From positions 10,038-74,037 of the forward strand of contig CASFJK010000009.1 of assembly GCA_949295025.1 (NCBI GenBank): a DNA stretch of 64,000 nucleotides. Direction: 5' to 3'. Of this stretch, positions 11,739 through 58,292 are shown one piece after another; position 1 is the first letter of the stretch, and the number at the start of each line of letters is the position of its first letter. The notes beneath the pieces are model-generated. The model saw nothing but the letters and a program-made list of their open reading frames with translations. It did no database searches and was not told where the DNA came from. The position numbers and the translations under genes were made by a program. The stretch is from an uncultured Pseudomonadota bacterium. GTDB taxonomy: Bacteria; Pseudomonadota; Alphaproteobacteria; RF32; CAG-239.

Positions 11739-11789
11739 ACAGACATATAAATTTATTTATTTCAATTATTGAATACTTTTGTAAAAAAA

Positions 11790-11825
11790 AAGTAAAAAAA
11801 ACTCTGCCTTTTCGGGCAGAGTTTG
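11790..11825 (-). terminator. Rho-independent terminator/attenuator after the distal pilin gene
   Basis: Minus strand reads AACTCTGCC-CGAAAA-GGCAGAGTT followed by TTTTTTT. It sits between the pilin stop (11844) and the PilT-like gene start (11738). Confidence 0.7.
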
Positions 11826-11843
11826 AAAAAACAAATTGCAATG

Positions 11844-12395: not shown

Positions 12396-12455
12396 ATCGC
12401 TTCCTTTATCAAAAGGTTGCCATTCCATTAGCAGCTGCAAACTGCTTTGGGCTTA

Positions 12456-13004: not shown

Positions 13005-13096
13005 TTTTTCCTCCATAAAATCATAATCATATTAATATTAACTATACATGATTAATAAAACCTAAACAAGATTGGCATTAGATATATAACTTTTGG

Positions 13097-13669: not shown

Positions 13670-13670
13670 C

Positions 13671-14801: not shown

Positions 14802-14819
14802 AATCTTTCCTCATCAAAC

Positions 14820-16493: not shown

Positions 16494-16502
16494 CTTAAAC
16501 CC

Positions 16503-30541: not shown

Positions 30542-30561
30542 ACAAGAGAAAAGGTGAAAAC

Positions 30562-31599: not shown

Positions 31600-31615
31600 A
31601 GTAAGGGAGAAGAAA

Positions 31616-32338: not shown

Positions 32339-33504
32339 AAAAGATTTTTTACATAAGTATTTTAAGCTTTTTCATAGTTGTGGGATATAGCTCCACAGCT
32401 TCTGCATGGCTAATTATGAAACTTTCCAATATGGCAGAAGATGTTACCACAACGGTAACTAAAATTGGAAAAAAAGCCCAGAATGCATTGGATCAAGCTG
32501 GAAACTTAACTATTGTTCAAAAAATAGGTAAAGGTTTTAAAGAAGCCAGAGCGTGGATTGATAGTAATGTCAGTAAACTAAAATCCTTTGCAGATGAAGT
32601 GCAAGATGATGTAGATGCTTATAAAAAAATGTATGAAGATACAAAGAAAATTTATGATGAAAATTTGGGCAATTATACAAAAATTTTAGATGATGTGAAA
32701 AAGTTAGAGCAATCTCGCCAGGAAATTGAATTAAAAATCAAAGAAGTAGAGACTTCGTTCAAAGAGCAAGTTGCAGCTGAAAAATCTACCATTTCAGGAC
32801 AAATAGCCGCTTGTAATGAGAATATGGAAAATCTAAAACAACTGATGAAAGACAACTCTCTTAATAAAGAAGCTTATGAAGCTGAATATAATCAATGGAA
32901 AGAAAAGCAAGAAAATTTAACGGCACAAATAGATGATTTGGATAAAGTTGCACAACAAGAACTAGATTCAATGTTATCTACCTATAAAAGCGAATTATCT
33001 AATTTAACGTCCCAGATTAGCCAATTAAAATCGGATTTAAGTCAATTAGCTGGTTTTTCAGAAGATGACGTAAGCGATGAAGATGCCTTGCTTAATACAG
33101 CAAATCTATATTTCTTGCAATATGATGAGGATTTGAGTCCAAAGCGCCAAGAGGCAATCAGATATAACCGATTGAAAGAGCGTCGCAACAGTATTATTAC
33201 CGGCTATTCTAAAGCTGTAGAACAAATTCCTGATGTGGTGACCAAAGATAATGAAACGGAAGATTTAGGTTATAATGCTTCAACGTTTGATACAACAGCG
33301 GGAGCATGGGGTGCAGCTGCGCAATTGCAGATTAATAAGTTAAAGGGCCTGAGCTCATTTGCTCATTTATTGGTTTATGACTTAAAACGCCAAACAGCAG
33401 TAGCCATGTCTAATTTAACTTTTTATAAGTTGCAGAAAGAACAGAAAAATATTGCAGAATTTAATATGGATGATTACGTCTATAAAAAGAAGGGAGATAA
33501 ATAA
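32335..33504 (+). CDS. Secreted coiled-coil T4SS-operon protein of unknown function
   Basis: 389 aa; ATGA overlap with the upstream gene. Signal peptide ...GYSSTASA; long E/K/Q/L coiled coil. Confidence 0.3.
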   Translation: MKKIFYISILSFFIVVGYSSTASAWLIMKLSNMAEDVTTTVTKIGKKAQNALDQAGNLTIVQKIGKGFKEARAWIDSNVSKLKSFADEVQDDVDAYKKMYEDTKKIYDENLGNYTKILDDVKKLEQSRQEIELKIKEVETSFKEQVAAEKSTISGQIAACNENMENLKQLMKDNSLNKEAYEAEYNQWKEKQENLTAQIDDLDKVAQQELDSMLSTYKSELSNLTSQISQLKSDLSQLAGFSEDDVSDEDALLNTANLYFLQYDEDLSPKRQEAIRYNRLKERRNSIITGYSKAVEQIPDVVTKDNETEDLGYNASTFDTTAGAWGAAAQLQINKLKGLSSFAHLLVYDLKRQTAVAMSNLTFYKLQKEQKNIAEFNMDDYVYKKKGDK

Positions 33505-33505
33505 A

Positions 33506-34207
33506 ATGAAAAATTTATATTTGAAAATATTTATCTTCTTTGCAGTGTTTTTTTCTTTGACGATATTGCCTTTGAAAAACGATGCAATGGCACTGTTTGA
33601 TCCGGGAAGCTTGGCGACACAAGTTCCGAATACGGTTGCGTCTGTAGCAAACAAGGTGACAACTTATGCAAACAAAGCCATAAAGGCCACATTGCAAGTT
33701 TATAAGTCTATTGAAGATTTCTTCAAAAAGTTGTTTAGCCGAAAGAATTCGAAAATTCCCGGAACCAAAGTAATTAAAGAAAGTAAGATTGTTGACGTTA
33801 ACAATGAAGAAGATATTCGTAAAGTATTTCCAACATTGTTCTTCCGTTATCCGTCAAATGATCCTGATGAACAGTTGGCCTACAAACGTGAAGGACAAGA
33901 ATTTTTTGAAGATACAATGATAGAAGCCTTTACCGCCGTAAGAGAATTGGAAAAGAAGCTTATTCAGATTGATACACAAATTGTAACGGCTGAAACAGAA
34001 TATACAAAAGCTGATGATATGAATGGTGGTTTATACAATCGCTATATGATTTCAGCCACAACAGACCAGTTGTTGATGGTTGTGCAAGAACTGGTTGCAA
34101 TCAAATCTCAAATGACGGCAGCATACGCAGTCAATGGAGAAGTTGAACCTTTGTATCTAAATACTGAGGAAAATAATATTATTTGGGAGAAGAGGTATGA
34201 TGAATAA
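33506..34207 (+). CDS. Secreted T4SS-operon protein of unknown function (possible VirB5-like paralog)
   Basis: ORF 33452..34207; AAGGGAG RBS precedes ATG 33506. Signal peptide MKNLYLKIFIFFAVFFSLTILPLKNDAMA; ALFDPGSLATQVPNTVASVANKV N-terminus; C-terminal helix LLMVVQELVAIKSQMTAAYAV. Confidence 0.3.
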   Translation: MKNLYLKIFIFFAVFFSLTILPLKNDAMALFDPGSLATQVPNTVASVANKVTTYANKAIKATLQVYKSIEDFFKKLFSRKNSKIPGTKVIKESKIVDVNNEEDIRKVFPTLFFRYPSNDPDEQLAYKREGQEFFEDTMIEAFTAVRELEKKLIQIDTQIVTAETEYTKADDMNGGLYNRYMISATTDQLLMVVQELVAIKSQMTAAYAVNGEVEPLYLNTEENNIIWEKRYDE

Positions 34208-37200
34208 AAAAGAAATTAAGACAGCTTTTGCAATAAGCTTGTTGTTTTCTGGAGCGATTTCATATCAAGTGAATGCTCAAGAAACTTATTCTCCTTTTTA
34301 TATAGAGGGGACCTCAACCCAAACACAAACAGAGACAAATTCTTCATCACAAAACAATATGCGTGTGGATAGTGTTTTAGATATTGAAGATGCCGTAATC
34401 TCAGAAGAAACACATCCTTTTTCGGGTTCAGAAGAACAGATGAATGAGTTGGAAAAGTTAGAACCGATAACCAATAATTTAAAAGCAGCGGTAGATGCAC
34501 ATAACCTAATTAATCGTTTACGTGGTTATAAAAATATTCAAAAACAATATAATAATACGGTTAAATTGCATGATCGTTCGGTCGAATTGTTAAAAGATTC
34601 AGAACAATGTACGATTAATTATATGGGAAGATATTTTCAAGATCCGGTTAAAGTATGGTCAGGAAAAGATATGTCGGAAATGCCTCAAAATCATGATTTA
34701 AGACAAGGGCTTTCAGCTTGGGCTATAGCTTTATATGAAACAGCAAAATCATCAGAGGTTTCCCCGATAGATATTGATGATGTTGTAAGTGTCGATTTGC
34801 AAACAAATGAAACAGTTGATGAAGATGGCAACATTTTGAATGTAGAAACATCACTGAGCAGCAGCACGAGTACGGTTGGTGTAAATGTTGATACTAGCGA
34901 AAATGTAACAGATTTGGAAACACTTCACACAAGTAGTGAAAGTGAAATTAATGATCTACAAGAACAAACAGGTGGAAACTATTTTCAAGAGCCAAGTCGT
35001 CAAGAAGAATTAGAAGCTGAAGATAGAAAAACAGATTTAATAAGTAAAGATATTGGTTCGGAAGTAGCTGTATGGATGGCAGATTATTTAGCCGGACAAA
35101 GCACATCATCAGGGCCAAGTTGGAGTAGTACTAATTTAGGTGGTGTCAAAAAACGTTTTCCTGTATGGACAGACCAGAAAACATTTTTTGGACAGTATTT
35201 AATTCGCAAATATAAAAATATTAAAAACTATATCAAAAATTATACAATTCCAGAAGAGGTTCGTCAAAGAATTGCGGATACGGTTTTTGACAGACAAAAG
35301 CAATATATGAATCAAGCTGAAGCGCAGATTACGCAGGCTGCCGTAGATGCTCGTTTAACAGCCAAAAGTATAGCCGATGAAAAAAAATCTGAAGCTAGAA
35401 AAGACTATGAGACTAAAGTTGCTGAGATAGAAAATGAAAGAGAAATAACAGTAGAAGAATTAAAACAAGATTTGGCCGCAAAAGTATCTGCTTTTGATAG
35501 TGAAATAGATGCCGCAAATCAAAAACGCGATCAGTATATGACACAAATCAGTGAGATAAATTCAAACAACAGCCAATTATCTCAAGACGTTAATGATCTC
35601 AAGCAAGAAATTGCAAATTATGATTTCTTGTTGTCAGACACATCTTTAACAGAAGAGCAGAAAAGCGAATATAATGAGATGAAGTCTGACATAAATGCAG
35701 AAATCAATACAATTCAAAATAAAATTAATTTACAAATAAATGAAAGAGATAATCTGCAAAAATTATATGATGAGCAAACAGGTATTGTGAATAAGAAAAA
35801 ACAAGAAAAAGCAGATTATGAAGGCAAAATTCAAACCAAGATTGGTGAAGCAAATGATAAAGCTGCACAAGAAAAGCAAGTTGCTCTCAATGAGTACAAT
35901 GTTAAGGTTGCTGCAATAGAAGATGAGCTAAAAGACAAAAATGCAAAAATTGATGCCGCAGAAATTGCCGCCAAAGCTGCAATTGGAAGCAAATCTTTAA
36001 TCACGGCTCAACAAATAGTTGGTCAGGCGGACTTAGTTATAGAAGATGCCAGAGAAGTTGCTTATACCAATGTTGATAAAACTTTAACAGCTCTTCAAGC
36101 ATTAGGAGATGATCTTTACAGAGGTCAATCTCAACCAACTGTTGCAGCTTATCACCAAGCTTTAATTGATAGCTTAAACGGTGAAGAATCTCAAATCGGA
36201 GGAGTGAAATTAGAGGCAGCAACGGCCAAGGTTCATGATTTGACAAACTTCAACGTAGATATTGTAATTAGCCCTCATATGGATGCACAAATGAGAGAGC
36301 TCTATTTGAATAATTATCGTGATGCTGTAAAAAACACTCAAATCATATTAAGTATTCCGATGTTTGATAAAATGTTGGAAGGCGTGAATACCGGTGTAGA
36401 TACGCAGTATTTTGTCGGTTCTCAACCAAAGAAAGAAGATTTTTCAGCACCAAAAACTTTACCAGATTATAATCTTCCTCCGGTTAGAGAATATGTCCGT
36501 TTAGATTATATTGATTTACAAAATATTGGCAAAGATAATCCTAAGATGGAGGTTGGACATTACAAAACACACGTACTTCCTAATGGGGCGAGCATAAAAA
36601 TTTGGGAAAAGACAGAAAGTTTGCCTATATCTATTGTGGATAAAGATAAATTCCTGGATTATGGTGGAAGAATACCTGAAATTTGGAAATTGATGCTCAA
36701 AGACAAAGCCTTTGTAGATAGTGATTTTTATTTAACACCAGACATGAATCCAGAGCCTGAAGAAGATACACCGGCAGAGTATAATCCGTTACAATTAGGT
36801 GGAGAAATGTCTACATTATACCGAGGCGGAATATATCCTTGTATCATGAAAAATATCCAAGGAGAAAGTGGTACGTGTAATGCCAGTGGTGTTATTGATA
36901 ATGGTACAGGTATTGTTGATGTAGCCATAATTGATAAAGGTAAAACTAATTCTAATGAATATTTCATGGGATTAGGCTTTGTTGATGGTGAGAGAAGAAC
37001 AGCGCTTCTGAGCCAAAACCTGCCAATTTGCCAAGAAGTTTCTGCAAAATGTAAAAAAAGTGTAGGTTTTTCATCGGGAAGTTTGGGGCTTGTATCAAAA
37101 CCATATTTAACCTTGTTGAATAAGGAAGATGAAGTTGGTAGTAGTTCAGGTTCTTTCGTCGCTGAAGGCGAAGCCAGCGAATTAGGTAGCATCATCAATG

Positions 37201-37883
37201 TATACAGCGGAAAAATGTTATCAGATGGAACTGAAGTCCAAAACGTTTTAGGATATAGTCCATATATGCAATCTGTTGTAAATTATGGTATCCGTATGGA
37301 AGAACGGTCTCAACAAGAAGATGCAGAAGATCTGAATGCTCAAGAAGAACAAAATGATGATATATATGTTCGAGCACAGTTTAATAACAATCAAGTTGGT
37401 GATTTTCTTGAACATGTTGAGATAGAGCAAAAGTATCAACAAGCATTGGATGAGTTAGAAGAACAAATTAAAGAAAGCAAAGATGAGTTGTATAGCAGTT
37501 TGCGAGAGTTTGGCTTCGAACCGAGTGAGGATTTTGATATATCAAATGAGGAAGATTTTGATTTGGCCGTAAAACAGTTAAAAACAGCAAAACAAAATTA
37601 TATGTCAAAAGCCAAAGGTGGTATTGATAGTATTGAACCTGGAGATTCAGAAGTTTTGAAAGATAGTCAAAACTCTTATAGCCGCGTATATCAAGGATTG
37701 TTGCTGGATAGTGAGGCGGTCGTAACCATGACAATGGATGTTGACAACTTATCAGAGTTTTCAGAGAATATCAAAACAGCCACAGCCAATACGGCAGTAG
37801 ATGATACATATGAGAAAAACGGCGATGATGAATTTGAGGAAACCTTAAAGGCAATGGAACCCGCATATTGCGCCGCTTATTAG
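34197..37883 (+). CDS. Giant (1228 aa) secreted coiled-coil protein, T4SS-operon encoded
   Basis: Signal peptide ...GAISYQVNA/QE, an S/T-rich segment, a ~250-aa heptad-like region (aa ~380-600), a Cys-containing C-terminal half and an acidic tail. No recognisable family. Confidence 0.3.
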   Translation: MMNKKEIKTAFAISLLFSGAISYQVNAQETYSPFYIEGTSTQTQTETNSSSQNNMRVDSVLDIEDAVISEETHPFSGSEEQMNELEKLEPITNNLKAAVDAHNLINRLRGYKNIQKQYNNTVKLHDRSVELLKDSEQCTINYMGRYFQDPVKVWSGKDMSEMPQNHDLRQGLSAWAIALYETAKSSEVSPIDIDDVVSVDLQTNETVDEDGNILNVETSLSSSTSTVGVNVDTSENVTDLETLHTSSESEINDLQEQTGGNYFQEPSRQEELEAEDRKTDLISKDIGSEVAVWMADYLAGQSTSSGPSWSSTNLGGVKKRFPVWTDQKTFFGQYLIRKYKNIKNYIKNYTIPEEVRQRIADTVFDRQKQYMNQAEAQITQAAVDARLTAKSIADEKKSEARKDYETKVAEIENEREITVEELKQDLAAKVSAFDSEIDAANQKRDQYMTQISEINSNNSQLSQDVNDLKQEIANYDFLLSDTSLTEEQKSEYNEMKSDINAEINTIQNKINLQINERDNLQKLYDEQTGIVNKKKQEKADYEGKIQTKIGEANDKAAQEKQVALNEYNVKVAAIEDELKDKNAKIDAAEIAAKAAIGSKSLITAQQIVGQADLVIEDAREVAYTNVDKTLTALQALGDDLYRGQSQPTVAAYHQALIDSLNGEESQIGGVKLEAATAKVHDLTNFNVDIVISPHMDAQMRELYLNNYRDAVKNTQIILSIPMFDKMLEGVNTGVDTQYFVGSQPKKEDFSAPKTLPDYNLPPVREYVRLDYIDLQNIGKDNPKMEVGHYKTHVLPNGASIKIWEKTESLPISIVDKDKFLDYGGRIPEIWKLMLKDKAFVDSDFYLTPDMNPEPEEDTPAEYNPLQLGGEMSTLYRGGIYPCIMKNIQGESGTCNASGVIDNGTGIVDVAIIDKGKTNSNEYFMGLGFVDGERRTALLSQNLPICQEVSAKCKKSVGFSSGSLGLVSKPYLTLLNKEDEVGSSSGSFVAEGEASELGSIINVYSGKMLSDGTEVQNVLGYSPYMQSVVNYGIRMEERSQQEDAEDLNAQEEQNDDIYVRAQFNNNQVGDFLEHVEIEQKYQQALDELEEQIKESKDELYSSLREFGFEPSEDFDISNEEDFDLAVKQLKTAKQNYMSKAKGGIDSIEPGDSEVLKDSQNSYSRVYQGLLLDSEAVVTMTMDVDNLSEFSENIKTATANTAVDDTYEKNGDDEFEETLKAMEPAYCAAY

Positions 37884-38992: not shown

Positions 38993-39008
38993 GAGGCGAG
39001 TATAGTCA

Positions 39009-39746
39009 ATGGTAGAAAATTTGCAGAGAAATAATGTCGATCAAAAATTGATTGGTTCGGGGCAGCCTCGACGTGTTATGCCTCAACAACAAAGACCCAA
39101 AAATGATAGTGTCTTTGTTGCTAATATTGCTGAAAAAAGATATCTTTGGACAGCAAGGGCTTTTGCAATAATCACAGCTATCAGTTTGTGCTGCAACATT
39201 ATTTTGATTTTAGCAATTTTTCAGGTTATGCCATTGTTTAGGGTTGAGCCTTTCTTATTGTCTTTTCAGGCAAAAGATGAGCAGGTATACAACATTGTCC
39301 CGTTAAAAAATCTGGAAGATGAAAAAGCCGTAACAGAAGTTTTTGTTCGTCAGTATGTTCTCTTAAGGAGCTCTTTTACGTCCAATATTCCGGAAATGGA
39401 AGCGCGCTGGATGCCGGGAGGTCCAATTCAAGAAATGTCTTCTCCTGCCGTATATGAAGATTTTCAAAAGAGAACGGCATTAAAAGCATTGGATATCATT
39501 CGTAGCAAAGGATTAACCCGCTCTGTAAAAATTATATCCGTTAACGAATTGACTAGAGGCCTGTGGCAAGTCGAGTATGAAACAAGAGATATGTATCCGG
39601 ATTCGAGCAAGCCTCAAATTAACTATTGGACAGCATCTTTACGTATAGCTTACCGTGGAAAAACCGTAAAATCAGGTGAAAGAATGAAAAATCCGGTTGG
39701 CTTTACGGTTGATAGGTATTCTTTAACTTATAATAAAGTACAATAA
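39009..39746 (+). CDS. virB8: VirB8-family T4SS protein, paralog b
   Basis: 245 aa. TM AFAIITAISLCCNIILILAIF, QVMPLFRVEPFLL, FVRQYVLLRSS and MKNPVGFTVDRY (NPxG motif); collinear with paralog a. Confidence 0.8.
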   Translation: MVENLQRNNVDQKLIGSGQPRRVMPQQQRPKNDSVFVANIAEKRYLWTARAFAIITAISLCCNIILILAIFQVMPLFRVEPFLLSFQAKDEQVYNIVPLKNLEDEKAVTEVFVRQYVLLRSSFTSNIPEMEARWMPGGPIQEMSSPAVYEDFQKRTALKALDIIRSKGLTRSVKIISVNELTRGLWQVEYETRDMYPDSSKPQINYWTASLRIAYRGKTVKSGERMKNPVGFTVDRYSLTYNKVQ

Positions 39747-39764
39747 TAAAATATAGAAAATAGA

Positions 39765-41528
39765 ATGGTACAAAATATGAAACAAATAGCAAAAATAATT
39801 TCCTTTGGAGTGCTGGCTTTTTCAAGCTTTAATGGTTTGGCTTATGCGCAAGAAAATAGTTTGGACCAAAGTGCAGATCAAGATCAGGGGCAGTATCGTT
39901 CTATGGATATGAGCTATGCCGGATTCGGCTCTATTGGTATGATGCAGAGCGCGTGGTTGGACCCTTTGCAAAATTTAGGTGAGGGACAAACAAAGCCAGC
40001 CTATTCAAAATATTATTGGTCATCAGATTTAGTTCTGCCTATCCGCTTGCGTGAAGGTATGATTACAATGATTAACTTTCCTGAATGGGAAATGATTGAA
40101 GACGTTTATATCGGTGATAACTCTACGTTTGATGGTCAGATCTCCGGTCCTAATACTGTTTTATTGTATCCTAAAAAAGGTGCAAATGTAGGCGTAGATA
40201 CCAACGTCATTATCTTTGGTCGTTCAGGAAATCGCTATGTGTTTTATGTAAGAAGTGAGGGTGTTAATACAGAAAGATTAACAAACTCAATTATTGATAT
40301 TGAAGTTATTGGCGAAGATGGATCTTCTGGTTCATCAATAGGTGCATTCGGAAGCGGAAGCAGCGTTTCTAATGGGGGTAAAGGTGCATCTGCCGGTGGA
40401 AATGGTAATGCCAAATCAGTTGCATCAACCTACACAAGACGCTTCCAAAAAGATGACTGGTTGAAATCTATACCGGTTGATCCGGAAAAGTTCCGCTTTG
40501 ATATTGAAGTTTACGTGCCAAATCCTGAAGATGTTGTTATTGCGCCGGAAAGAGTTTGGCGAGACGATATCTTTACTTATATTGATTTAGGCAATAAAGC
40601 AATCAATATGAATCAGAGACCGATTGTTACATTGATTAATGAAAAAGTTGAAACTCCGGTTGGTTTTCGTTCAAAAGGACCAAACAACCGTTTGATCGTG
40701 GTTGAAGCTGTCGGCGACTTGGTTTTAAGAAACGGAAAGCGCATTGTGTGCCTGAAATTGCGTCGCTCTGATGCTGCCGGATTGGAATATGGCGTATATG
40801 CCGATGATGCAAAACCGGGATGGGATGTTCCTCCTCCGCTGAAAAATGGAGACCTCTCTACTGCTTTTGATCCTCAGGCAAGTGCCAATAGCAGTATGAA
40901 TGGTTTTTCTGCCCCAAATGGCGGCATGAATGAAAACGGAGAATATATTTATCCGCAATATAATACTGGTGCAGCTGGATTCGGTGGAATGTCAGGAAAT
41001 AATATGTCCGGTGCAAATGGAATGGTTGCAAACGGTAGTAATGGTTTTGCCGGAGCCGGTGGAATGACTGGTAATTATGGTATGCAAATGAATGGAATGT
41101 CTGGAATGGGTGGCTGGAACGGCGCTGCAATGCCGCATCAAGGTGCTGTCACCGGAGCTTATGATTATTCCAAAATGCAAAAACTGCCAAATCAAACATT
41201 AGCAAATCAAAGCAACGGAAACAGCAAATATTTGCAGCAATTTGGCTATGGTAGTGGTTTTGATGCTAATACCAATATTTCTATTGAATTGGGAACAGAT
41301 GACGATGTGAGCAAACTGGAGACCTTATGGAATAGTTTAAGCCGTAAATATAAAACGGATTTATCCGGCTATGAACCTTTCTACTCTGTAGATACTCCGG
41401 CAGATGGACAAGGTAAAGAATTGTTCCATCTAAGAGTTGGTCCTGTCAAAAGTTTAGAGGAAGGGGACGCCGTTTGTTCAAAACTTGGTCGTAATGGTAT
41501 ATTTTGTAGCGTAGTTAGAACTCAATGA
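39765..41528 (+). CDS. virB9: VirB9/TrbG/CagX-family protein with G/N/M-rich linker and C-terminal SPOR-like domain
   Basis: N-domain: LPIRLREGMITMINFPEWEMIEDVYIGDNSTF...TNVIIFGRSGNRYVFYV. C-domain: DDIFTYIDLGNKAINMNQRPIVTLINEKVETPVGFR...LVLRNGKRIVCLK. Then GGMSGNNMSGANGMVANGSNGFAGAGGMTGNYGMQMNGMSGMGGW, and the last ~85 aa (ISIELGTDDDVSKLETLWNSLSRKY...LFHLRVGPVKSLEEGDAVCSKLGRNGIFCSVV) fit the SPOR pattern. Confidence 0.75.
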   Translation: MVQNMKQIAKIISFGVLAFSSFNGLAYAQENSLDQSADQDQGQYRSMDMSYAGFGSIGMMQSAWLDPLQNLGEGQTKPAYSKYYWSSDLVLPIRLREGMITMINFPEWEMIEDVYIGDNSTFDGQISGPNTVLLYPKKGANVGVDTNVIIFGRSGNRYVFYVRSEGVNTERLTNSIIDIEVIGEDGSSGSSIGAFGSGSSVSNGGKGASAGGNGNAKSVASTYTRRFQKDDWLKSIPVDPEKFRFDIEVYVPNPEDVVIAPERVWRDDIFTYIDLGNKAINMNQRPIVTLINEKVETPVGFRSKGPNNRLIVVEAVGDLVLRNGKRIVCLKLRRSDAAGLEYGVYADDAKPGWDVPPPLKNGDLSTAFDPQASANSSMNGFSAPNGGMNENGEYIYPQYNTGAAGFGGMSGNNMSGANGMVANGSNGFAGAGGMTGNYGMQMNGMSGMGGWNGAAMPHQGAVTGAYDYSKMQKLPNQTLANQSNGNSKYLQQFGYGSGFDANTNISIELGTDDDVSKLETLWNSLSRKYKTDLSGYEPFYSVDTPADGQGKELFHLRVGPVKSLEEGDAVCSKLGRNGIFCSVVRTQ

Positions 41529-44500
41529 TGGAAAATGGTAAAGAACCACAAGCACCGTTAACACATTCGGAAAGCTATGTAAAAAAAACCAACAGAATTA
41601 TTTTAATTGTTGGAATATCTTCTCTTGTCATTTTTTTGCTGGGCGTCATTTTGCTCATAACAGAAGATAACAATACATACGAATATGAAGAACCCTCATT
41701 TACGGATAATGCCGATGTTATTAACGTTGGTTCAGAAAGTCCTCTTTTGGATAATAGTATAGAGTTTCAAACAATAGAAGATATTGGAATTCCGATTACA
41801 ACCACGCCTAATCCGGTTCCTTTAGGTCAAGTTGTTTTGGGAACAAAAGCTCAAAATGTTTTAACTATAGGAACCAATGGAAAAGCATCAATCAAAATTG
41901 TTTCTGTGCTTTTAGCAGAACCTCCTGCCGAAGGTTTTAATTTTGACGATGGTTGTAGTGGTAAAAGTTTGGTTGGTAAAGATACATGCCATATTACCAT
42001 GTCTTGGGAGCCTGTGGTAGCTGGAAATGTGCAAAATAATTTTATCATTTCTTGGCATGAAACCAATGTTTCTTCCCAAAATGCCAAATCAGAAAAAGTT
42101 CCGGTTATCGGAAACGCCGTAACAAAAGAAGAATGTTCATCATGCGAATTGCAAGTTGGAGAAACATCTGTTGGAGATGGTGAAATTGTTAAGCAAGCCA
42201 TTGGTATCGATGGTCGCGTGATTGGCTCCATTGATAAAGATGGTTTAGTGCACGATAATACAACCCAAAAAGTCATTGGGCGAGTTAATACCAATGGATT
42301 GATTGTGGATGATAATGGTAATATTATCGGTATATCTGACAACCAAAAAGTGGTTCTGGATGAAAACGGAAATGTTATAGGTTATGTAAATCCGGATGGA
42401 ACGGTTGTCGATAAAAATGGCAATGTGGTAGGACGTGTTTTGCCTGACGGAACCGTAGTCGACAAAGATGGAAACGTTATTGGTCGCGCCGTTGAAACAG
42501 GCTATGTTTATGATGAAAACGGCAATGTCATTGGTAAGGTTATGCCGGATGGAAGTGTCGTTGATAAAAATGGCAATATTATCGGTCGGGTCAATGGTCG
42601 CGGAGAGGTTGTCGATTTAAAAGGCAATGTTTTGGGGGTTGTTTCCAAACAAGGTCGTGTTGCTGTTGATAAACAAGGCAATAAGCTTGGTGTAGTTATG
42701 CCAAATGGTTCTATTGTCAATTCTTCAGGAAAAGTTGTTGGCCATATTGATGAAAATGGCAATGTTGTCAGAGACAAAATTATAGGGATGACAGGAAATA
42801 AAGGTACTTTGGCTGTTGCCGGAGGAAAGGTCATTGGCTATGTTAATGATAAAAAAGAAGTAGTTGATGAAAACGGCAATGTTGTCGCTAAAGTCGATAA
42901 TGAAGGAAATGTTTTACAACACAAAAAAATAGGTACAATCGGCGATAAAAGACGTATGGCCTATGATGAACAAGGAAATGTAATCGGTTATATTCAAGAT
43001 GATGGAACAGTTGTAGACTTTAATGGAAATGTAATTGGTTCTGTCGATGAAAAAGGTATTATAAAAGATAAAAATGGAAAAATTATAGGAAAAGCGGGTG
43101 ATGCTGTAGATATCTTATATGATGATCAAGGAAAAGTTGTCGGTTTCGCAGAGGGAGATAAAGCTTTCGATTTGCAAGGAAAAGATATCGGCAATGTTAA
43201 TGAAGATGGCGAAGTTTATAGTAAAAATTTAGAAATTGTCGGTAAAACAGATAGTTCCATGAATTTGGCTCTTGATAACGATGGTAATGTAATCGGTTAT
43301 ATTGACAAGACAGGAACTGCCAAAGATTTTTCCGGAAATACTATGGGAAAAGTCAATGAAAATGGTCGTATTATAGCAACAACACCAGAGATTGTTGGTG
43401 CTTTGGTCGAGACAACAATGTTGCCGATAACGCCTCAAAATTCAGTTTTGGGTAGAGTTGGAAACGACGGTAGTGTTTATAATGCTCAAGAAGAAATTGT
43501 CGGTAGAGTTTTGGCTAGCGGCCTGGTTAAAGACGTTGCCGGTTCTACGGTTGTGGCCCAAATGGTAAAAGGCGGTATGGTTGTTGGTTATGGCTGCAAA
43601 CAAATCGGCGTTTTGGATAAAGACGGAAAAATTAAGAAAAATAACGAAGATACAAAAGCCAAAATAAATTTTGATGGTACCGTAACGGATATTTCTGGCA
43701 AATATTTAGGCGAAGTTGTGCAAACCGGAAAAGTTTTTGATAATAATTGCAAGCATATAGGAAATGCTCGAGCAGATGGTTTGGTTTATGGTAGCGACGG
43801 AAAATATGTCGGTTGTTTAAATCCCAATGGAATGGTTCTAGATGAAAAAGGAAATATCATCGGAAGAGTGGGGCAAAAAGGAATGGCCGTTGATTATAAT
43901 AGCCGTTACTTAGGTTTCGTTGGAAATAATAATTTAGTATATAATACCAAAAAAGAGGCAATTGGCTGCGTTAATATTGATGGCGAAGTTATTAATAAAA
44001 AAGGTGGCTATGCCGGCAAACTTATTGGTAAGAAATATGCTTTTGATTTGGATGGAAATTTCTTAGATGTTGTTGATGATACGGGAATAATTGTTCTTCC
44101 AGATGGAGAAAGCAGAATATCTGTAAATAATTTAATCCTTGATAGCAAAAACAATATTGTCGGTTATGCATTGGACCATCAAGCCAGCGCTTTAGATGCC
44201 AAAGGGACAATAATCGGTCGTCCGTTTTTTGATGGCAAAGTCTATAACAACAAAGGCATCAATAGTGGAAAATTGAAAAGTGTTAATGGTTTCTATGGAA
44301 AAACGTTTGGAAAAATAACTTCTCAAGAACCTGTGGTAGACTTCAATGGTTATGTTGTCGGTCAAACATTGCCGGATGGACGCGTTATTAATAAATTTGG
44401 CGAAGTTTTAGGTAGTATTGATGCCAAAGGAACATTTTTTAATGATAAGGGCGAATATCAAGGAGCTGTACTGAAAAAAGGCGCTGCCATTGGTTATGAT

Positions 44501-45256
44501 GGCTCTTATTTGGGATATGTTGTCAATAGTGGTCGTGTACTTGATTTAGATGGTAAGGATACAGGTAGAGTAACATCTGATGGAAAAGTTATCAACGCCA
44601 AGGGAGACATTATTGGTGAAATAATTTCTGAAGATATTGTTATTGATACATGGGGGCATTACAAAGGTATTGTTAATGGTTTGGGTGATATCTTAGACAT
44701 GAAAAATGAAGCAGTGGGTTTGATTTTGCCCGGAGGCTCATCAGATAAAAATTATAGTATTTTAAAAAAAGGTACTGTAATTGATTTTTCAGGAGAAATC
44801 AGCGGAGCTGTACAGCCGGATGGTTCTGTCGTGGATATAAACAATAATAATATTGGTAGAGTTCTTCCGGATGGAAGTGTGATCAGTGATGCCGGAAAAC
44901 TTTATGGCGATGTTTTATCCGGAGATATAATCATTGGCAACAGTGATAAAGTTGTGGGTTATGTAAATATTGATGGTACAATTCGTGCAAAAGATGGTAA
45001 TATCATCGGCAGAACCATGTCTAAAGATTTGGCAACCGATAACGAAGGAAATATTTTAGGTCGCATATTTAAGATAGGAGCCAGCGTCTTAAAGAACGAC
45101 GGAAAATATATAGGCAGACTTTCTCCGGAAGGAAAAGTAATAAACGCCAGCGGCTCTTCAATCGGTTATATAAAGAACAATGGTTCTTATATCGATTTAG
45201 ATAAAAAAGTTTCAGGATATGTCCTGATGGAAGTTGCAAAAAACCGGAGGAATTAA
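41525..45256 (+). CDS. 1243-aa membrane-anchored repeat protein (TM + Ig-like domain + ~1000 aa of GxVxDxxGNxIGxV-type repeats)
   Basis: ATGA overlap with the virB9 stop. TM IILIVGISSLVIFLLGVILLI. The Ig/ASH-like segment PVPLGQVVLGTKAQNVLTIGTNGKASIKIVSVLLAEPPAEGFNFDDGCSGKSLVGKDTCHITMSWEPVVAGNVQNNFIISW precedes repeats such as NPDGTVVDKNGNVVGRVLPDGTVVDKDGNVIGRAVETGYVYDENGNVIGKVMPDGSVVDKNGNIIGRV. Confidence 0.6.
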   Translation: MMENGKEPQAPLTHSESYVKKTNRIILIVGISSLVIFLLGVILLITEDNNTYEYEEPSFTDNADVINVGSESPLLDNSIEFQTIEDIGIPITTTPNPVPLGQVVLGTKAQNVLTIGTNGKASIKIVSVLLAEPPAEGFNFDDGCSGKSLVGKDTCHITMSWEPVVAGNVQNNFIISWHETNVSSQNAKSEKVPVIGNAVTKEECSSCELQVGETSVGDGEIVKQAIGIDGRVIGSIDKDGLVHDNTTQKVIGRVNTNGLIVDDNGNIIGISDNQKVVLDENGNVIGYVNPDGTVVDKNGNVVGRVLPDGTVVDKDGNVIGRAVETGYVYDENGNVIGKVMPDGSVVDKNGNIIGRVNGRGEVVDLKGNVLGVVSKQGRVAVDKQGNKLGVVMPNGSIVNSSGKVVGHIDENGNVVRDKIIGMTGNKGTLAVAGGKVIGYVNDKKEVVDENGNVVAKVDNEGNVLQHKKIGTIGDKRRMAYDEQGNVIGYIQDDGTVVDFNGNVIGSVDEKGIIKDKNGKIIGKAGDAVDILYDDQGKVVGFAEGDKAFDLQGKDIGNVNEDGEVYSKNLEIVGKTDSSMNLALDNDGNVIGYIDKTGTAKDFSGNTMGKVNENGRIIATTPEIVGALVETTMLPITPQNSVLGRVGNDGSVYNAQEEIVGRVLASGLVKDVAGSTVVAQMVKGGMVVGYGCKQIGVLDKDGKIKKNNEDTKAKINFDGTVTDISGKYLGEVVQTGKVFDNNCKHIGNARADGLVYGSDGKYVGCLNPNGMVLDEKGNIIGRVGQKGMAVDYNSRYLGFVGNNNLVYNTKKEAIGCVNIDGEVINKKGGYAGKLIGKKYAFDLDGNFLDVVDDTGIIVLPDGESRISVNNLILDSKNNIVGYALDHQASALDAKGTIIGRPFFDGKVYNNKGINSGKLKSVNGFYGKTFGKITSQEPVVDFNGYVVGQTLPDGRVINKFGEVLGSIDAKGTFFNDKGEYQGAVLKKGAAIGYDGSYLGYVVNSGRVLDLDGKDTGRVTSDGKVINAKGDIIGEIISEDIVIDTWGHYKGIVNGLGDILDMKNEAVGLILPGGSSDKNYSILKKGTVIDFSGEISGAVQPDGSVVDINNNNIGRVLPDGSVISDAGKLYGDVLSGDIIIGNSDKVVGYVNIDGTIRAKDGNIIGRTMSKDLATDNEGNILGRIFKIGASVLKNDGKYIGRLSPEGKVINASGSSIGYIKNNGSYIDLDKKVSGYVLMEVAKNRRN
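42190..45230 (+). repeat. Degenerate ~16-18-codon coding repeats (protein-level; DNA copies diverged)
   Basis: Recurring D/N-x-x-G-x-V-(V/I)-D-x-(N/D)-G-(N/K)-x-(I/V)-G-x-V units read directly from the translation. Boundaries are approximate. Confidence 0.7.
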
Positions 45257-45259
45257 ACA

Positions 45260-54042: not shown

Positions 54043-57000
54043 TTAATGTTTTAAATCATTATTTGTATGGTAAGGTTCATTTTCATCGGCATCAATATTA
54101 AAATCAGGCAAAAAGAAGTCATCTTCCTCTTCTGGTTGAGAAGTAGGTATTGGCGCTGATAAAGTAGCTTTAGGTGCCGGAATATCCGGATATTGAGATA
54201 TATTTGAGGCCTTTAAACCGCTGGCTTCTAAATCATCTGTTATTGTCTCTGAAGAAGAATATGGATCATTTTCCATAAAATTATCAAATAATTCAGAAAA
54301 ATCTACATCATCATTTTGAGCAGGGTCACGTGCGCTTTCTGACTGAGCAGATGCATCTGTATTATAAATTTTTTCTGTCGGAACTTTCTCTCCTTTGACA
54401 TCAATTATCTGGTCATCGGTTATTGTATTTTCTTCCGGAGCCAAATTTACATCAGAATTTTCCTCTGGCTCTGCTGGTTCTTCTTCATACTCCCATTCCC
54501 ATTCACCGTCATTATTGTTATCGGTCGTAGAGTTGGATTCTTGAGCCAAATTTACATCAGAATTTTCCTCTGCTTCAGCAGGTTCTTCTTCATATTCCCA
54601 TTCCCACTCACCGTCATTATTGTCATCGGTCGTAGAGTTGGATTCTTGAGCCAAATTTACATCAGAATTTTCCTCTGGCTCTGCTGGTTCTTCTTCATAC
54701 TCCCATTCCCACTCACCATCATTATTGTCATCGACCGTAGAGTTAGATTCTTGAGCCAAATTTACATCAGAATTTTCCTCTGATTCAGCAGGTTCTTCTT
54801 CATACTCCCATTCCCATTCACCGTCATTATTGTCATCGACCGTAGAGTTAGATTCTTGAGCCAAATTTACATCAGAATTTTCCTCTGGTTCAGCAGGTTC
54901 TTCTTCATACTCCCATTCCCACTCACCGTCATTATTGTCATCGGCCGTAGAGTTGGATTCTTGAGCCAAATTTACATCAGAATTTTCCTCTGGTTCAGCA
55001 GGTTCTTCTTCATACTCCCATTCCCACTCACCGTCATTATTGTCATCGGTCGTAGAGTTGGATTCTTGAGCCAAATTTACATCAGAATTTTCCTCTGGTT
55101 CAGCAGGTTCTTCTTCATACTCCCATTCCCAATCACCAGCATCATCATCATTATCTTGTGTCGTATTTTCAGTATCTGTCTGATTGTCAGAAAGGAGCTC
55201 TTCCGTAGCAGAAGTTTTTTCTTCTTTATGAAAAGGACTAATTAATTGTTCTAATGCATTTTTAGTGTCTAAATTATCCAAAAATTTATTAAAAAGACTT
55301 TGTTTTTTAGGCTGTGCATTTACAACTTCTGAATTGTTGTCTTTTTCAGAAATAGAAGAAGTTTTTTCGGAAGGCTCATTAGATATAGCTTTGGTTGAAA
55401 CTGTATTATTTTCTTCTTCTATATCGGTATTTAATAAAGCATCAGAAGCAGATATTGAATTTTCATCAGAATTTATTTCAGAAGACAAATCAGGAATATT
55501 TGAAAATTCAGAATTTTCAAATGAAGTTTTATCATCATCATTAGTTATAAAAGAAATATCATTATCATCTGAAAAATCATTAGCAACATCCAACTCAGGA
55601 AGTTTATCTGCTCCAATATCAGGTTCTATCGCCGTGTTCAAATCAGCTGTAGATATTTCATTATCAACATTATTTGCTTTACCTTCATCGGAAAAACCTA
55701 ATAAATCTTGTAATTCTAAATCAGCAGGACTTAGAGGTTGCAAATTTTGTTCTTCATTATTTTTTTTCTTCTTCTTTTTCTTCTTTTTCTTTTTCGATGA
55801 GGTAGATGTGATATTTTCATCTATAGAAGCTGTTTCCATATTAGAAATATTTTCATTACTCTCTTCCTCGTTAGAAGAGGGGATAGATAGAGCTTCATCA
55901 TTTTCCTCAGCTAAAACAGAAGAACTTTCTATATTTTCATTTTCGACAGTCGGTTCGGGCTCATAAGAGCTATTAGAGCTTTCCTGTGTATTTAAGTTAA
56001 ACATATTTTTAAATACTTGCTTCAAACCGGAAGAATTTTTCTCTTCTTTTTCATCATGAACAGAGGTGTCTAAATTGGGAGCAAAGTGGTCTCCGCTAAC
56101 CTGAGGAAGCGGTTGATAATAAACCGTTTGGTTCTTACTTTGTTGTTTTAAAAAATCCAAATTTTCTTTATGAAATTCACTTAAAGCTTTGACCAAGTAT
56201 TGATTGGAAAGTTGGCTGCTTTCTTTCAAAGCGCCAGAAATAATGGATGAAATTTCTTTTGTTTGCTCTTTTGCCATTTCTCTAAAAAGCTGAGATTGAG
56301 CCTTTATAATATCAGCTATAAAATCTTGAGGATTTGCAAAAGGGGCGTTGTTAATTTGTATATTATTTGCGTTATTGGCATTATTGCTGGCATTAATGGC
56401 ATTTTGTTGCAAAAACATTTTTGCCATTTCCAACTGAGATTCTGTAATAGCTTTGGTAATCTCTTTGGTATTATCAATCACTTTAACACTTTCACCGGAA
56501 TCAGATGCAATAATGTGAGAAGAACTTCCTCCTTTTGAAATTTCTTTAATTAAAGAAGAAGTCATTTCTCTTTGCGATTGTGTAAGTGATTGCGTAAAAG
56601 AGATAAGCTCTTTTTGGCGTTTTTCTTCCGATTGAGCTAATGCTCCGGCAATGGCCGTTGCAATGTCTTTTGCAAAATTAGCATCAGGCTTAAATACAGT
56701 AGTTCCACCACTTGTTTGAGGTGTAGACTGATTTTGCATATTTTGCATCATTTGCAACATTTGCTTTTGTAGTTCCAACGATTGGGTGTTATCTACCGTT
56801 GGCGTGGCTACCGGAGTTGGATTCTGAGGAGCGTTTTGTGTTGAAGCCGTATCTGCCAAAGCATTAGATAAAATAGTTCCATCGTTGGTACTATCACCGC
56901 TATCTTCGTTGGGAGCAATGCCGTTTTGTTCTTCCAACTCATCGATATATTCTTGCAGAAGAGAGCCACCGGGAAGCACGCTGCACATATGTCTGATTTC

Positions 57001-57165
57001 AGGTGGTTGTTGTAAAATCATATTGTTAAAATCAGCTTTTTGCTTTTCATCAAGAATATGTCTTTGGCGAAAAATATTTAAAAGACGTTGAATGATGACA
57101 ATCGGATCTTCAACTCCGGCCACCTTTTTATTTCTGCGTATAGAAGATATATTTTCTTCGCTCAC
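54043..57165 (-). CDS. 1040-aa hyper-acidic repeat protein (7x 35-aa EWEWEYEEEPAEPEENSDVNLAQESNSTTDDNNDG units, poly-Lys tract)
   Basis: Long ORF with no signal peptide or TM. Has an N-terminal ~90-aa globular part, Q/N-rich segments, SSKKKKKKKKKKKNNEE, a D/E/N/S-rich middle, a tandem array and an acidic C-terminus. Candidate secreted substrate by inference only. Confidence 0.3.
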   Translation of the reverse strand: MSEENISSIRRNKKVAGVEDPIVIIQRLLNIFRQRHILDEKQKADFNNMILQQPPEIRHMCSVLPGGSLLQEYIDELEEQNGIAPNEDSGDSTNDGTILSNALADTASTQNAPQNPTPVATPTVDNTQSLELQKQMLQMMQNMQNQSTPQTSGGTTVFKPDANFAKDIATAIAGALAQSEEKRQKELISFTQSLTQSQREMTSSLIKEISKGGSSSHIIASDSGESVKVIDNTKEITKAITESQLEMAKMFLQQNAINASNNANNANNIQINNAPFANPQDFIADIIKAQSQLFREMAKEQTKEISSIISGALKESSQLSNQYLVKALSEFHKENLDFLKQQSKNQTVYYQPLPQVSGDHFAPNLDTSVHDEKEEKNSSGLKQVFKNMFNLNTQESSNSSYEPEPTVENENIESSSVLAEENDEALSIPSSNEEESNENISNMETASIDENITSTSSKKKKKKKKKKKNNEEQNLQPLSPADLELQDLLGFSDEGKANNVDNEISTADLNTAIEPDIGADKLPELDVANDFSDDNDISFITNDDDKTSFENSEFSNIPDLSSEINSDENSISASDALLNTDIEEENNTVSTKAISNEPSEKTSSISEKDNNSEVVNAQPKKQSLFNKFLDNLDTKNALEQLISPFHKEEKTSATEELLSDNQTDTENTTQDNDDDAGDWEWEYEEEPAEPEENSDVNLAQESNSTTDDNNDGEWEWEYEEEPAEPEENSDVNLAQESNSTADDNNDGEWEWEYEEEPAEPEENSDVNLAQESNSTVDDNNDGEWEWEYEEEPAESEENSDVNLAQESNSTVDDNNDGEWEWEYEEEPAEPEENSDVNLAQESNSTTDDNNDGEWEWEYEEEPAEAEENSDVNLAQESNSTTDNNNDGEWEWEYEEEPAEPEENSDVNLAPEENTITDDQIIDVKGEKVPTEKIYNTDASAQSESARDPAQNDDVDFSELFDNFMENDPYSSSETITDDLEASGLKASNISQYPDIPAPKATLSAPIPTSQPEEEDDFFLPDFNIDADENEPYHTNNDLKH
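54436..55140 (-). repeat. Tandem 105-bp in-frame repeat array, ~6.7 copies, near-identical
   Basis: Unit starts (plus strand GAGCCAAATTTACATCAG...) at 54438, 54543, 54648, 54753, 54858, 54963 and 55068, an exact 105-nt period. Only scattered substitutions (e.g. ggctctgct vs ggttcagca vs gcttcagca). Confidence 0.95.
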
Positions 57166-57320: not shown

Positions 57321-58292
57321 TTACAAATAAATAGCAACAACTTTGTGTATTTTATTCAAATCATCATTACCAATTTCAATTCGGTCATCAGGATTCCATC
57401 TCATGCCATATAATTTACCGTTTTCATCTTCACGAATACTCAAAATTTTAGCTTCGTTTTCAGAAGTGTAATATACGGCAATATCTCCGACGCTAACCAT
57501 CTCTTGCGGATCAACAAACAAAACAGAACGTGTCGGTAACAAGCTGCCCAATCTTCTGGTGCACAAGTTAACGGCATATGCATCTTTCTTTCCATACAAA
57601 TTTGACGGACGCTGAACTTTTCTTGTTTCTTGAGAAAAATCAATCACAATATCGCCATCTTTTCCGGCAACACCGTAAACAGAAATCTTCAAACCGTCTG
57701 GATTCGAACTTCCGAAAGAAGATATTGCTCCACGCGGAGTAGATAACAGCTTATATTTAGCATCATTTCTTTGAATGATCTCATCAAGCATACCTTTATC
57801 TTCTAAAGATTTAATCTCGTTTTTAAGATCCTCAACACTAGTATTCAGAGCTTTGGCAATATTTTTCATTTCTTTGTCAGAAACTTCTCTTTGACCCATT
57901 TCAATGCGGTGATAAACAGACAATGTCATATCTGCGCTTTCAGCAACTTCAATAAGAGTCAAGTTCTTTTCATTTCTAATCTGACGCAAACCGGCACCAA
58001 GAGTTTTCAAACCGGTTTTTTCATTGATTTTATTGCGTCTTTCTTGTTCTCTTCTCCAAGCTTGAACAATTTCTTGTTGAGAATTTTGCTCATTGACGAA
58101 CAAGTCTTGTAAAGGGCAGTCTAAAAATTCGGCAACGCGAACCAATTGTTCTTGATCCACACGACGATAACCTTTTTCAATTTTAGAAATTGCAGAAAGA
58201 CTAACAGATAAATGATCAGCCAACTCCTGCATTGAACGTCCACGCAATCTTCTAAACATTCTAATTTGGTTAGGGAAAATAATTTCTTCCAT
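57321..58292 (-). CDS. Transcriptional regulator with two XRE-type HTH domains and an S24/LexA-like C-terminal domain
   Basis: HTH1: IRMFRRLRGRSMQELADHLSVSLSAISKIEKGYRRV. HTH2: LRQIRNEKNLTLIEVAESADMTLSVYHRIEMGQREV. C-terminus: RRLGSLLPTRSVLFVDPQEMVSVGDIAVYYTSENEAKILSI...GKLYGMRWNPD...IHKVVAIYL, collinear with the LexA/cI autopeptidase fold (candidate Ser in LGSLLP, Lys in EAKIL). Confidence 0.65.
   Translation of the reverse strand: MEEIIFPNQIRMFRRLRGRSMQELADHLSVSLSAISKIEKGYRRVDQEQLVRVAEFLDCPLQDLFVNEQNSQQEIVQAWRREQERRNKINEKTGLKTLGAGLRQIRNEKNLTLIEVAESADMTLSVYHRIEMGQREVSDKEMKNIAKALNTSVEDLKNEIKSLEDKGMLDEIIQRNDAKYKLLSTPRGAISSFGSSNPDGLKISVYGVAGKDGDIVIDFSQETRKVQRPSNLYGKKDAYAVNLCTRRLGSLLPTRSVLFVDPQEMVSVGDIAVYYTSENEAKILSIREDENGKLYGMRWNPDDRIEIGNDDLNKIHKVVAIYL

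Follow-up and report, generated by a model that had tools for sequence, protein, structure and literature searches.

The window analysed here is a stretch of 64,000 nucleotides (nt) from an uncultured Pseudomonadota bacterium (GTDB: Alphaproteobacteria; RF32; CAG-239), namely positions 10,038-74,037 on the forward strand of contig CASFJK010000009.1 in assembly GCA_949295025.1. It holds an operon for a type IV secretion system (T4SS), in which two giant open reading frames (ORFs) lie between virB9 and virB11: A (41525..45256, 1243 amino acids (aa)) and B (45260..50338, 1692 aa). The two are members of a new repeat-expanded VirB10 lineage that uses a known but uncharacterised fold and in which the scaffold has undergone a derived split into two genes. 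The gene order, assigned with Pfam, is virB8, virB8, virB9, A, B, virB11, with VirB4 and two VirB2-like genes upstream. The features of this block, in window coordinates, are the following.

39765..41528, +: virB9/CagX gene, 587 aa (Pfam CagX, 51.8 bits)
41525..45256, +: A, read here as the N-terminal half of a split VirB10, 1243 aa; tail, transmembrane helix, ASH/Ig-like domain, ~60 repeats
41525..41653, +: cytoplasmic tail (..SESYVKKTNR) and single transmembrane helix, aa 25-43 (Kyte-Doolittle)
41798..42109, +: ASH/PapD-like Ig domain, ~aa 92-195 (AlphaFold strands, model residues 49-152)
42185..45223, +: array of ~60 seventeen-residue beta-hairpins (Bflower_2 237 bits; lag-17 z = 16.8; predicted local distance difference test score (pLDDT) of the strands ~75-93)
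45212..45253, +: near-invariant C-terminal motif SGYxL(P/M)EVAKNRRN-COOH, predicted helical (model residues 1191-1199)
45246..45250, +: ribosome-binding site GGAGG, 9 nt before the TTG start of B (sequence read)
45260..50338, +: B, read here as the C-terminal half of the split VirB10, 1692 aa; signal peptide, ~72 repeats, Gly-rich linker, TrbI/VirB10 core, tail
45260..45364, +: predicted Sec signal peptide, aa 1-35, cleavage VLA|QEITA (sequence features)
45365..47980, +: conserved, gap-free repeat array, aa 36-907, ~51 hairpins (conservation profile; AlphaFold)
47966..48019, +: short conserved hinge (A.A.PLQYYS) between the conserved and the variable array (invariant columns A903-Y911; predicted helix, model residues 886-892)
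48020..49063, +: regular 17-aa units, copy number varying between species, then two conserved closing hairpin pairs
49091..49249, +: conserved Gly-rich linker (..FGxGxAYGxGxGPGxNLGPGGGxGPGERY..; invariant columns 1278-1312)
49373..49945, +: VirB10/TrbI beta-barrel core (PF03743, aa 1372-1562)
49955..50335, +: low-complexity C-terminal tail (PPPPP, rich in Pro and Ser/Thr) with a conserved ..VPQLF end
50350..51318, +: virB11 ATPase gene, closing the virB8-B9-A-B-B11 block (Pfam T2SSE)

A first-pass annotation of this DNA had proposed a repeat-expanded VirB10 inside a virB operon, with its core at the C-terminus of B and with A coupled to virB9 by an ATGA junction, and these claims hold. The pair sits between virB9 and virB11 in a conserved order, the stop of virB9 and the start of A do overlap as ATGA when the junction is read, and the TrbI check of B with Pfam gave PF03743 at 124.5 bits against a cut-off of 35. 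The NCBIfam VirB10/ComB10 models NF038091 and NF038092 also match B, and solved homologues of its core include ComB10 (2bhv, E 3.9e-19), TraF, TrwE, CagY (8cb2, 9vgf), and Xanthomonas VirB10. At ~aa 1480-1540 the core has a hydrophobic helix-loop-helix, a counterpart of the antenna as judged by sequence alone.

What B lacks is the other end of a VirB10. Canonical VirB10 proteins (A. tumefaciens VirB10, pKM101 TraF, R388 TrwE) resemble B in their C-terminal barrel and in their position between virB9 and virB11, but they are bitopic proteins of ~380-400 aa with a Pro-rich linker, in which a single chain crosses both membranes. In B there is no cytoplasmic tail with a transmembrane helix on the chain of the core, nor does hydropathy indicate a transmembrane helix elsewhere in the protein; the anchor is on A. 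The membrane span is thus interrupted here, and more than 2200 aa of repeats take the place of the canonical linker. B begins instead with the predicted Sec signal peptide. A QEITA-type motif could be placed in 53 of 170 B-type homologues, and the site before it is mostly A-x-A, with A (40) or V (9) at position -3 and A (50) at position -1. This signal peptide looks like a cleavable replacement of the canonical transmembrane anchor. Past it, aa 51-250 are 85-90% conserved across species, matching the core, and aa 250-900 align without gaps. An indel hot spot follows at ~aa 950-1100, with a gap fraction of 0.5-0.7 in the family alignment and a lower pLDDT over 48020..49063; the best Bflower_2 stretch of B also lies there (aa 1012-1106).

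The missing end is found in A. Its transmembrane helix has a mean Kyte-Doolittle hydropathy of 3.11 over 19 residues, and its tail motif is common to the unsplit giant VirB10 proteins described below and to the repeat-less relative P0284. With Foldseek, the Ig domain matches the ASH domain of CEP192 (6fvi), the PapD-like domain of HYDIN (2e6j), and GAE/MSP domains, all with a probability of 0.99-1.0; a weak choice-of-anchor D match was also obtained. The whole N-terminal module is colinear with the N-termini of unsplit proteins, A aa 12-179 aligning to aa 11-182 of P0289 (E 4e-12) and likewise to P0157. By these alignments, A carries the ancestral VirB10 N-terminal module, i.e., cytoplasmic tail, transmembrane anchor, and ASH domain. 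The first-pass annotation had rightly given A a transmembrane anchor, an Ig/ASH-like domain, and ~1000 aa of repeats without a core (Pfam finds no TrbI match in A), and the description of A as a repeat-only partner is the part that falls. At its other end, the EVAKNRRN motif occurs in every complete A-type homologue and is absent from the unsplit proteins in a pattern search. It is a candidate docking element.

Both arrays are made of the same unit. Pfam assigns Bflower_2 (PF21785) to 15 stretches in A and 11 in B, with 237 and 241 bits against a cut-off of 38, and Bflower (PF21784) with 96 and 68 bits against a cut-off of 25; DUF3659 is matched in both proteins as well. The period is 17 residues: BLOSUM autocorrelation at lag 17 gives z = 17-19 relative to shuffles in A and B, with decaying harmonics at 34, 51, and 68, and the DNA repeats with a period of 51 nt. 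The unit consensus is V-D-x-N-G-N-V-I-G-x-V-x-P-D-G-T-V. Among 37 units selected by a pattern that fixed G at unit positions 5 and 9, position 2 is D or N in 86%, in agreement with the [DNEQ]xxG hairpin-tip motif, and the second turn is D-G in 81%. There are ~60 units in A (110 predicted strands after the Ig domain) and ~72 in B (1235 aa divided by 17), so that the two proteins together hold ~130 beta-hairpins. An alternative count with hidden Markov models (HMMs), which gave 32 and 28 significant units, was dropped; it undercounts diverged units and is superseded by the autocorrelation and strand counts. GC skew in the repeat region (window 42001-46000) reaches 0.30-0.35, the highest in the window, which may come from the G-rich codons of the Gly, Asp, and Val in the consensus.

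The expectation of more than 1100 aa of 16-18-residue units, dozens in each protein, was thus accurate, and so was the view that they are beta-hairpins unlike the repeats of Helicobacter CagY and Legionella DotG. The idea of a new repeat chemistry was not: the repeat type already has a name, the beta-flower/DUF3659 family. The first-pass annotation had stated that a match to a characterised family outside T4SS would count against its reading, and this was a near miss, for the family is named and its function is not characterised. Beta-flower/DUF3659 proteins also occur outside T4SS, with no function assigned, and AlphaFold models show the fold as a closed, shallow barrel whose 8, 10, or 12 strands are short and whose hairpin tips carry the [DNEQ]xxG motif (PMC10584680). 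The arrays share with these proteins (PF21784/PF21785/PF21786, clan CL0395; DUF3659, PF12396) strong HMM matches and the tip motif. However, the beta-flowers described are single domains of ~96 aa with 4-, 5-, or 6-fold symmetry, often in small proteins or lipoproteins, whereas here ~130 hairpins form two arrays of ~1000 aa or more within the scaffold of a secretion system. A PDB sequence search with a 200-aa slice of the repeats gave no match.

Structure models were built with AlphaFold2 from family alignments for aa 44-1243 of A (pLDDT 80.3, predicted template modelling score (pTM) 0.67) and aa 28-1227 of B (pLDDT 81.5, pTM 0.73; pLDDT 88-96 over aa 37-907). The alignment used for B misplaces at least the last 110 residues of the truncated query, hence the lower confidence of its tail. 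Both models are all-beta arrays in which strands of 5 and 3 residues alternate with the 17-aa period. Such pTM values over 1200 residues argue for rigid bodies and not for beads on a string. Predicted strand lengths and period are compatible with a closed shallow beta-flower barrel, and the arrays may be either closed flowers or a continuous solenoid.

How widespread is this arrangement? A sequence search with B retrieved 988 relatives, the best 120 of which are all 1470-1770 aa long and combine beta-flower repeats with TrbI. In a set with one genome per species, 236 stretches contained relatives of B and 78 loci were kept; the split family was retrieved with two peptide patterns, one of them the Gly-rich linker. 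Almost all kept loci are labelled as metagenome-assembled genomes (MAGs) of uncultured Alphaproteobacteria or Proteobacteria from the gut of human, ruminant, chicken, rabbit, and mouse. Their labels include "Azospirillum sp. 51_20", "CAG:495", and "Candidatus Scatocola", and two bins are labelled Lachnospiraceae and Bacteroidaceae. The order virB8, virB9, A, B, virB11 is kept wherever the flank suffices, with virB11 84-98% identical across loci; the N-terminal module of A is present in 76 of 80 loci, the core of B in 79 of 80, and repeats and core share a single ORF in 79 of 79 loci. Sizes run from 1037 to 1832 aa for A and from 1411 to 2318 aa for B, all intact, and the lengths of the two covary weakly (Spearman -0.27, Pearson 0.02; confounded by phylogeny). 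More than 70 species-level gut MAGs thus have the split form in a conserved, intact, and syntenic state. Both ORFs exist as the first-pass annotation had drawn them, and assembly artefacts are excluded by 75-79 related genomes in which the two are intact.

The related loci are chromosomal, and megablast of PLSDB plasmids with window 39000-51400 gave zero matches. Databases name the members merely "TrbI/VirB10 family" or "DUF3659 domain-containing" proteins, and a description of a split giant VirB10 family was not found in the literature on VirB10 in gut or uncultured Alphaproteobacteria (including RF32) and on DUF3659.

Relatives that do not have the split, from sister lineages of gut or uncultured Alphaproteobacteria, bear on its origin. 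In 35 cluster representatives of 1498-2406 aa (e.g., P0157, 2015 aa; P0167, 2147 aa; and P0289, 2406 aa), an SxxY(I/V)KKSNR tail, a transmembrane helix, and an ASH module as in A precede the core at the end of the same chain, so that tail and anchor are where a bitopic VirB10 has them. These unsplit giants share with the A-B pair the tail, helix, and ASH module, the beta-flower repeats, the Gly-rich linker, the TrbI core, the xLF end, and the virB8-virB9-virB10-virB11 context. They differ in being one polypeptide without partner gene, internal signal peptide, QEITA N-terminus, or EVAKNRRN C-terminus; the QEITA motif of mature B, too, is absent from them in a pattern search. Three loci illustrate this layout (L081, L082, and L083), each with virB8, virB9, a single giant virB10, and virB11, and no partner gene. 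In L083 (GCA_963604715.1) and L081 the genes on either side of the virB8-B9-B10-B11 block are housekeeping genes (DNA polymerase I, phosphatidylserine (PS) decarboxylase, acetyl-CoA carboxylase); in L083 the block is separate from virB4, and L081 has a VirD4-like gene on the opposite strand, ~8 kb downstream.

Simpler relatives exist as well. P0284 (579 aa) and P0364 (523 aa) have anchor, ASH domain, and core and no repeats, and the P0284 locus is a compact conjugation-like cluster of virB2, B3, B4, B8, B9, B10, and B11 with SLT and virD4. When the core of B was compared with 1.84 billion representative sequences to see which relatives bear repeats, the full-length relatives listed, down to ~43% core identity and with two more at 34-39%, were 1400-2400 aa long. 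All long relatives scanned with Pfam have beta-flower repeats, and the next-nearest VirB10s (~500-630 aa, e.g., in Microvirga) have none. The terminal xLF is common to most repeat-bearing VirB10s, split or unsplit, and is absent from P0284, P0364, P0293, and P0215.

In a neighbour-joining tree of the cores (100 bootstraps), the repeat-bearing VirB10s form one clade in 100/100 replicates and the split, B-type proteins one clade in 87/100, while the unsplit giants alone do so in just 4/100. The unsplit giants are thus a grade around the split clade, which is nested among them. Since canonical VirB10, too, is laid out on one chain, the tree and the single-chain layout of the unsplit relatives indicate that the split is derived.

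Taken together, A and B probably constitute one giant repeat-expanded VirB10 in two pieces, whose arrays would form a periplasmic collar or cage that links the membranes non-covalently. How would such a machine have arisen, and how would it be built? A 17-residue beta-hairpin array would first have expanded between the N-terminal module (anchor and ASH domain) and the outer-membrane barrel at the C-terminus. The protein would then have been divided in the subclade to which the window belongs, A keeping the tail, the anchor, the ASH domain, and ~60 hairpins, and B starting with a Sec signal peptide followed by ~72 hairpins, the Gly-rich linker, and the VirB10 core. Both arrays would be periplasmic because they are placed after an N-in transmembrane helix or a signal peptide and before the core; this topology agrees with the placement that the first-pass annotation had suggested. 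There, A and B would re-associate. The C-terminus of A and the highly conserved mature N-terminus of B are candidate contacts, since both are conserved and yet absent from unsplit proteins. Multiplied by the ring symmetry of the core complex, the arms would add up to a large collar or cage, and this would tie the machinery of the inner membrane to the cap in the outer membrane with no covalent link.

Two known systems make a collar the most likely role of the arrays, by analogy. CagY of Helicobacter pylori (1927 aa), from an effector-type T4SS, likewise has a VirB10 core, detectably homologous to that of B, after a ~1000-aa repeat region that follows an inner-membrane anchor. DotG/IcmE of Legionella, another VirB10 homologue, is rich in repeats in its middle domain as well. 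It has been proposed that this domain of DotG and its counterpart in CagY form the periplasmic collar, a structure absent from minimal systems; the repeat unit of DotG has 10 residues, and its structure is of low confidence (bioRxiv 10.1101/2023.03.22.533729). CagY is a single chain with a helical repeat region, whereas the 17-aa beta-hairpins here are diverged in DNA and mostly conserved by position, and DotG, unlike B, keeps its own anchor.

A further step, which is speculative and rather doubtful, would be to see here a new T4SS architecture, in which two non-covalently docked arms replace the envelope-spanning VirB10 chain and ~130 hairpins per A-B pair, times the ring symmetry, build a multi-megadalton periplasmic cage. 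The C-terminal helix of A might then plug into the first beta-flower of B, which would make the coupling of inner-membrane and outer-membrane parts, and with it channel gating, reversible or open to regulation.

The reading of A and B as one divided protein has to be weighed against another, unlikely but deserving serious attention, in which A would be an accessory protein in its own right. It would be a tandem paralogue of VirB10, truncated and comparable to DotF beside DotG, that decorates the core complex as a second inner-membrane-anchored periplasmic arm while B does the job of VirB10 without an anchor. DotF is a second bitopic inner-membrane protein in the complex of DotG, though it is not derived from VirB10. 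In favour of the accessory role, A and B each align to P0157 as a full copy minus one end (A aa 12-1231 to P0157 aa 6-1243), together they have 2935 aa where the unsplit forms have a median of ~2150 aa, and Cys-containing slices of A and of B map to the same region of the unsplit proteins. On the other side, alignment registers within the repeats barely beat shifted ones, with similar best and second-best scores, and anchor and ASH domain, which are on the chain of the core in all unsplit relatives and in ordinary VirB10, are retained by A alone. By either route, the functional outcome would still be a divided VirB10.

Several other observations weigh against the reading of a divided VirB10. 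When 100-aa slices of the two arrays were turned into HMMs, they matched the unsplit proteins in many registers at similar scores and could not be placed uniquely. B aa 39-1645, however, align nearly gap-free to P0157 aa 319-1945, and this, with the alignment of A and the excess length of the pair, weakly favours a tandem duplication and complementary truncation over simple fission. A would then be a truncated paralogue, and the first-pass annotation had indeed called it paralogous. The total of A and B ranges from 2585 to 3802 aa between species, a poor fit with a strict periplasmic ruler. An 85-aa (5-unit) super-period, the sign of closed 5-fold flowers, was looked for by autocorrelation and none was found. 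Finally, the signal peptide of B was judged on sequence features alone, and every sequence is MAG-derived.

Could the hairpins instead enclose a cargo or toxin in a closed shell of the Rhs/YD type, like those of Rhs effectors, Tc toxins (BC), and teneurins? The resemblance is real at the local level. The best Foldseek matches of model B are the teneurin-like 9ifo (E 4.8e-19, probability 0.96) and the Rhs effectors 8uy4, 8qja, 7pq5, and 8h8a, and A as a whole protein matches RHS_repeat (E 3.6e-10) and TIGR01643 YD_repeat (E 2.6e-11). Yet no individual RHS stretch in A is above threshold, and model A finds no Rhs shell among PDB entries, its Ig domain being the sole Foldseek match. Superposition of model B on the Rhs and teneurin shells gives TM-scores of only 0.05-0.09 with a root-mean-square deviation of ~30 A, so that the local hairpin pattern alone fits and no hollow cocoon is obtained. 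The strands, at 3-5 residues with a 17-aa period, are shorter than those of YD hairpins, and neither protein has a DPxG[LW] motif as in the PxxxxDPxGL autoproteolysis site of Rhs cores, an Rhs-core match, or a toxin or other cargo domain. A shell is improbable.

Improbable, too, is that the repeats are a surface-exposed, host-interacting, antigenically variable region with a recombining copy number, as has been proposed for CagY, in which short alpha-helical modules with Cys residues make up the middle repeat region, its most polymorphic part (PMC10706595). The carriers are gut bacteria, array lengths differ widely between species, and the block at ~aa 950-1100 of B varies in copy number among them. 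However, the DNA copies of the repeat are only 60-80% identical to each other and Tandem Repeats Finder detects nothing in the repeat DNA, which leaves no substrate for frequent recombination and makes collapse or expansion artefacts and recombination cassettes unlikely. The near-identical DNA repeats and hypervariable region of CagY have no equivalent here in a comparison between species, most of the array being gap-free and conserved position by position, and the topology would put the arrays in the periplasm. The first-pass annotation had taken the diverged copies as a sign of structural repeats and not of a variation cassette, and this conservation bears it out.

The split could also be taken for an artefact or for a pseudogenising nonsense mutation, or the two ORFs could be joined by stop-codon read-through, but this is extremely improbable. 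In the window, where TAA, the single codon ACA, and the TTG start of B occupy 45254-45262, and in the closest relatives of the window, A and B are in one frame, but this is so in only 14 of 73 related loci, the frames differing in the other 59, mostly with overlapping ORFs, and B-type proteins have their own conserved signal peptide and a Shine-Dalgarno site before B, the C-terminus of A is nearly invariant, and the split clade spans many species-level genomes in independent assemblies.

Several points make the family worth attention. To our knowledge, VirB10 is the sole T4SS subunit thought to span both membranes, and its expansion by repeats has so far been studied mainly in CagY and DotG. 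Conformational signals that depend on ATP are held to reach the outer-membrane pore from the ATPases of the inner membrane by way of VirB10. The lineage offers a further, structurally different expansion, all-beta and confidently predicted, a graded natural series from no repeats to unsplit giant to split giant, and a natural uncoupling of the anchor from the pore. Were the docked-arms proposal true, it would be a natural experiment on the energy-sensor model of VirB10 in abundant uncultured gut commensals. For the orphan beta-flower/DUF3659 fold, this is the first cellular context to be clear. Humans, ruminants, poultry, and mice all harbour carriers, which are widespread gut Alphaproteobacteria with no cultured representatives, and the system may matter for their dealings with hosts or neighbours.

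The surroundings of the pair hold other unusual genes. The VirB9/CagX product is long (587 aa) and has a weak C-terminal match to the peptidoglycan-binding SPOR domain (aa 518-585, 22.7 bits, cut-off 21). Upstream, the VirB2-like gene at 24595-26640 (+) encodes a protein of 681 aa, in which a TrbC/VirB2 pilin domain makes up the first 85 residues and the ~600 aa after it have no family match; the second, at 24133-24576, is of ordinary size. Between virB4 and virB8 (29612-37883, +) lie five genes in a row for small proteins, each with one hydrophobic segment at its N-terminus, and a gene for a 1228-aa protein; none of the products has a credible Pfam match. Large proteins are encoded at the matching position in L001, a related locus, and in L082.

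Divergent from the virB operon is a complete-looking type IVb pilus cluster (10761-23564, -), with genes for a PilT-like ATPase, a T2SSF platform protein, a T2SSE ATPase, PilO, a secretin, a TcpQ-like protein, and two PilS/bundlin-type pilins (11844-12440 and 12456-13016). Adjoining it (6615-9519, -) are a Ser/Thr protein kinase, a PP2C phosphatase, and a VWA-domain protein in a row.

Downstream of virB11, conserved ORFs of 230, 421, 216, 1040, and 755 aa without a family match occupy 51355-57165 and 61708-63975 (-), and a double helix-turn-helix regulator at 57321-58292 keeps its position in L001. The protein encoded at 58432-61635 (-) has a signal peptide, a lysozyme-like VgrG3_C domain (aa 104-302, 84 bits), a polytopic region, and a 370-aa tail. 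The first-pass annotation had called it VirB6-like and placed an isolated repeat unit in its tail. The TrbL/VirB6 match is below threshold (E 0.24), although the syntenic gene of L001 does match TrbL, and with the lysozyme-like domain added the protein looks like a VirB1-like hydrolase fused to VirB6. The isolated unit is real: it lies at aa 776 and is the only strict-motif match outside A and B. Lost in more distant relatives, it is kept in four related loci (L003, L006, L007, and L011).

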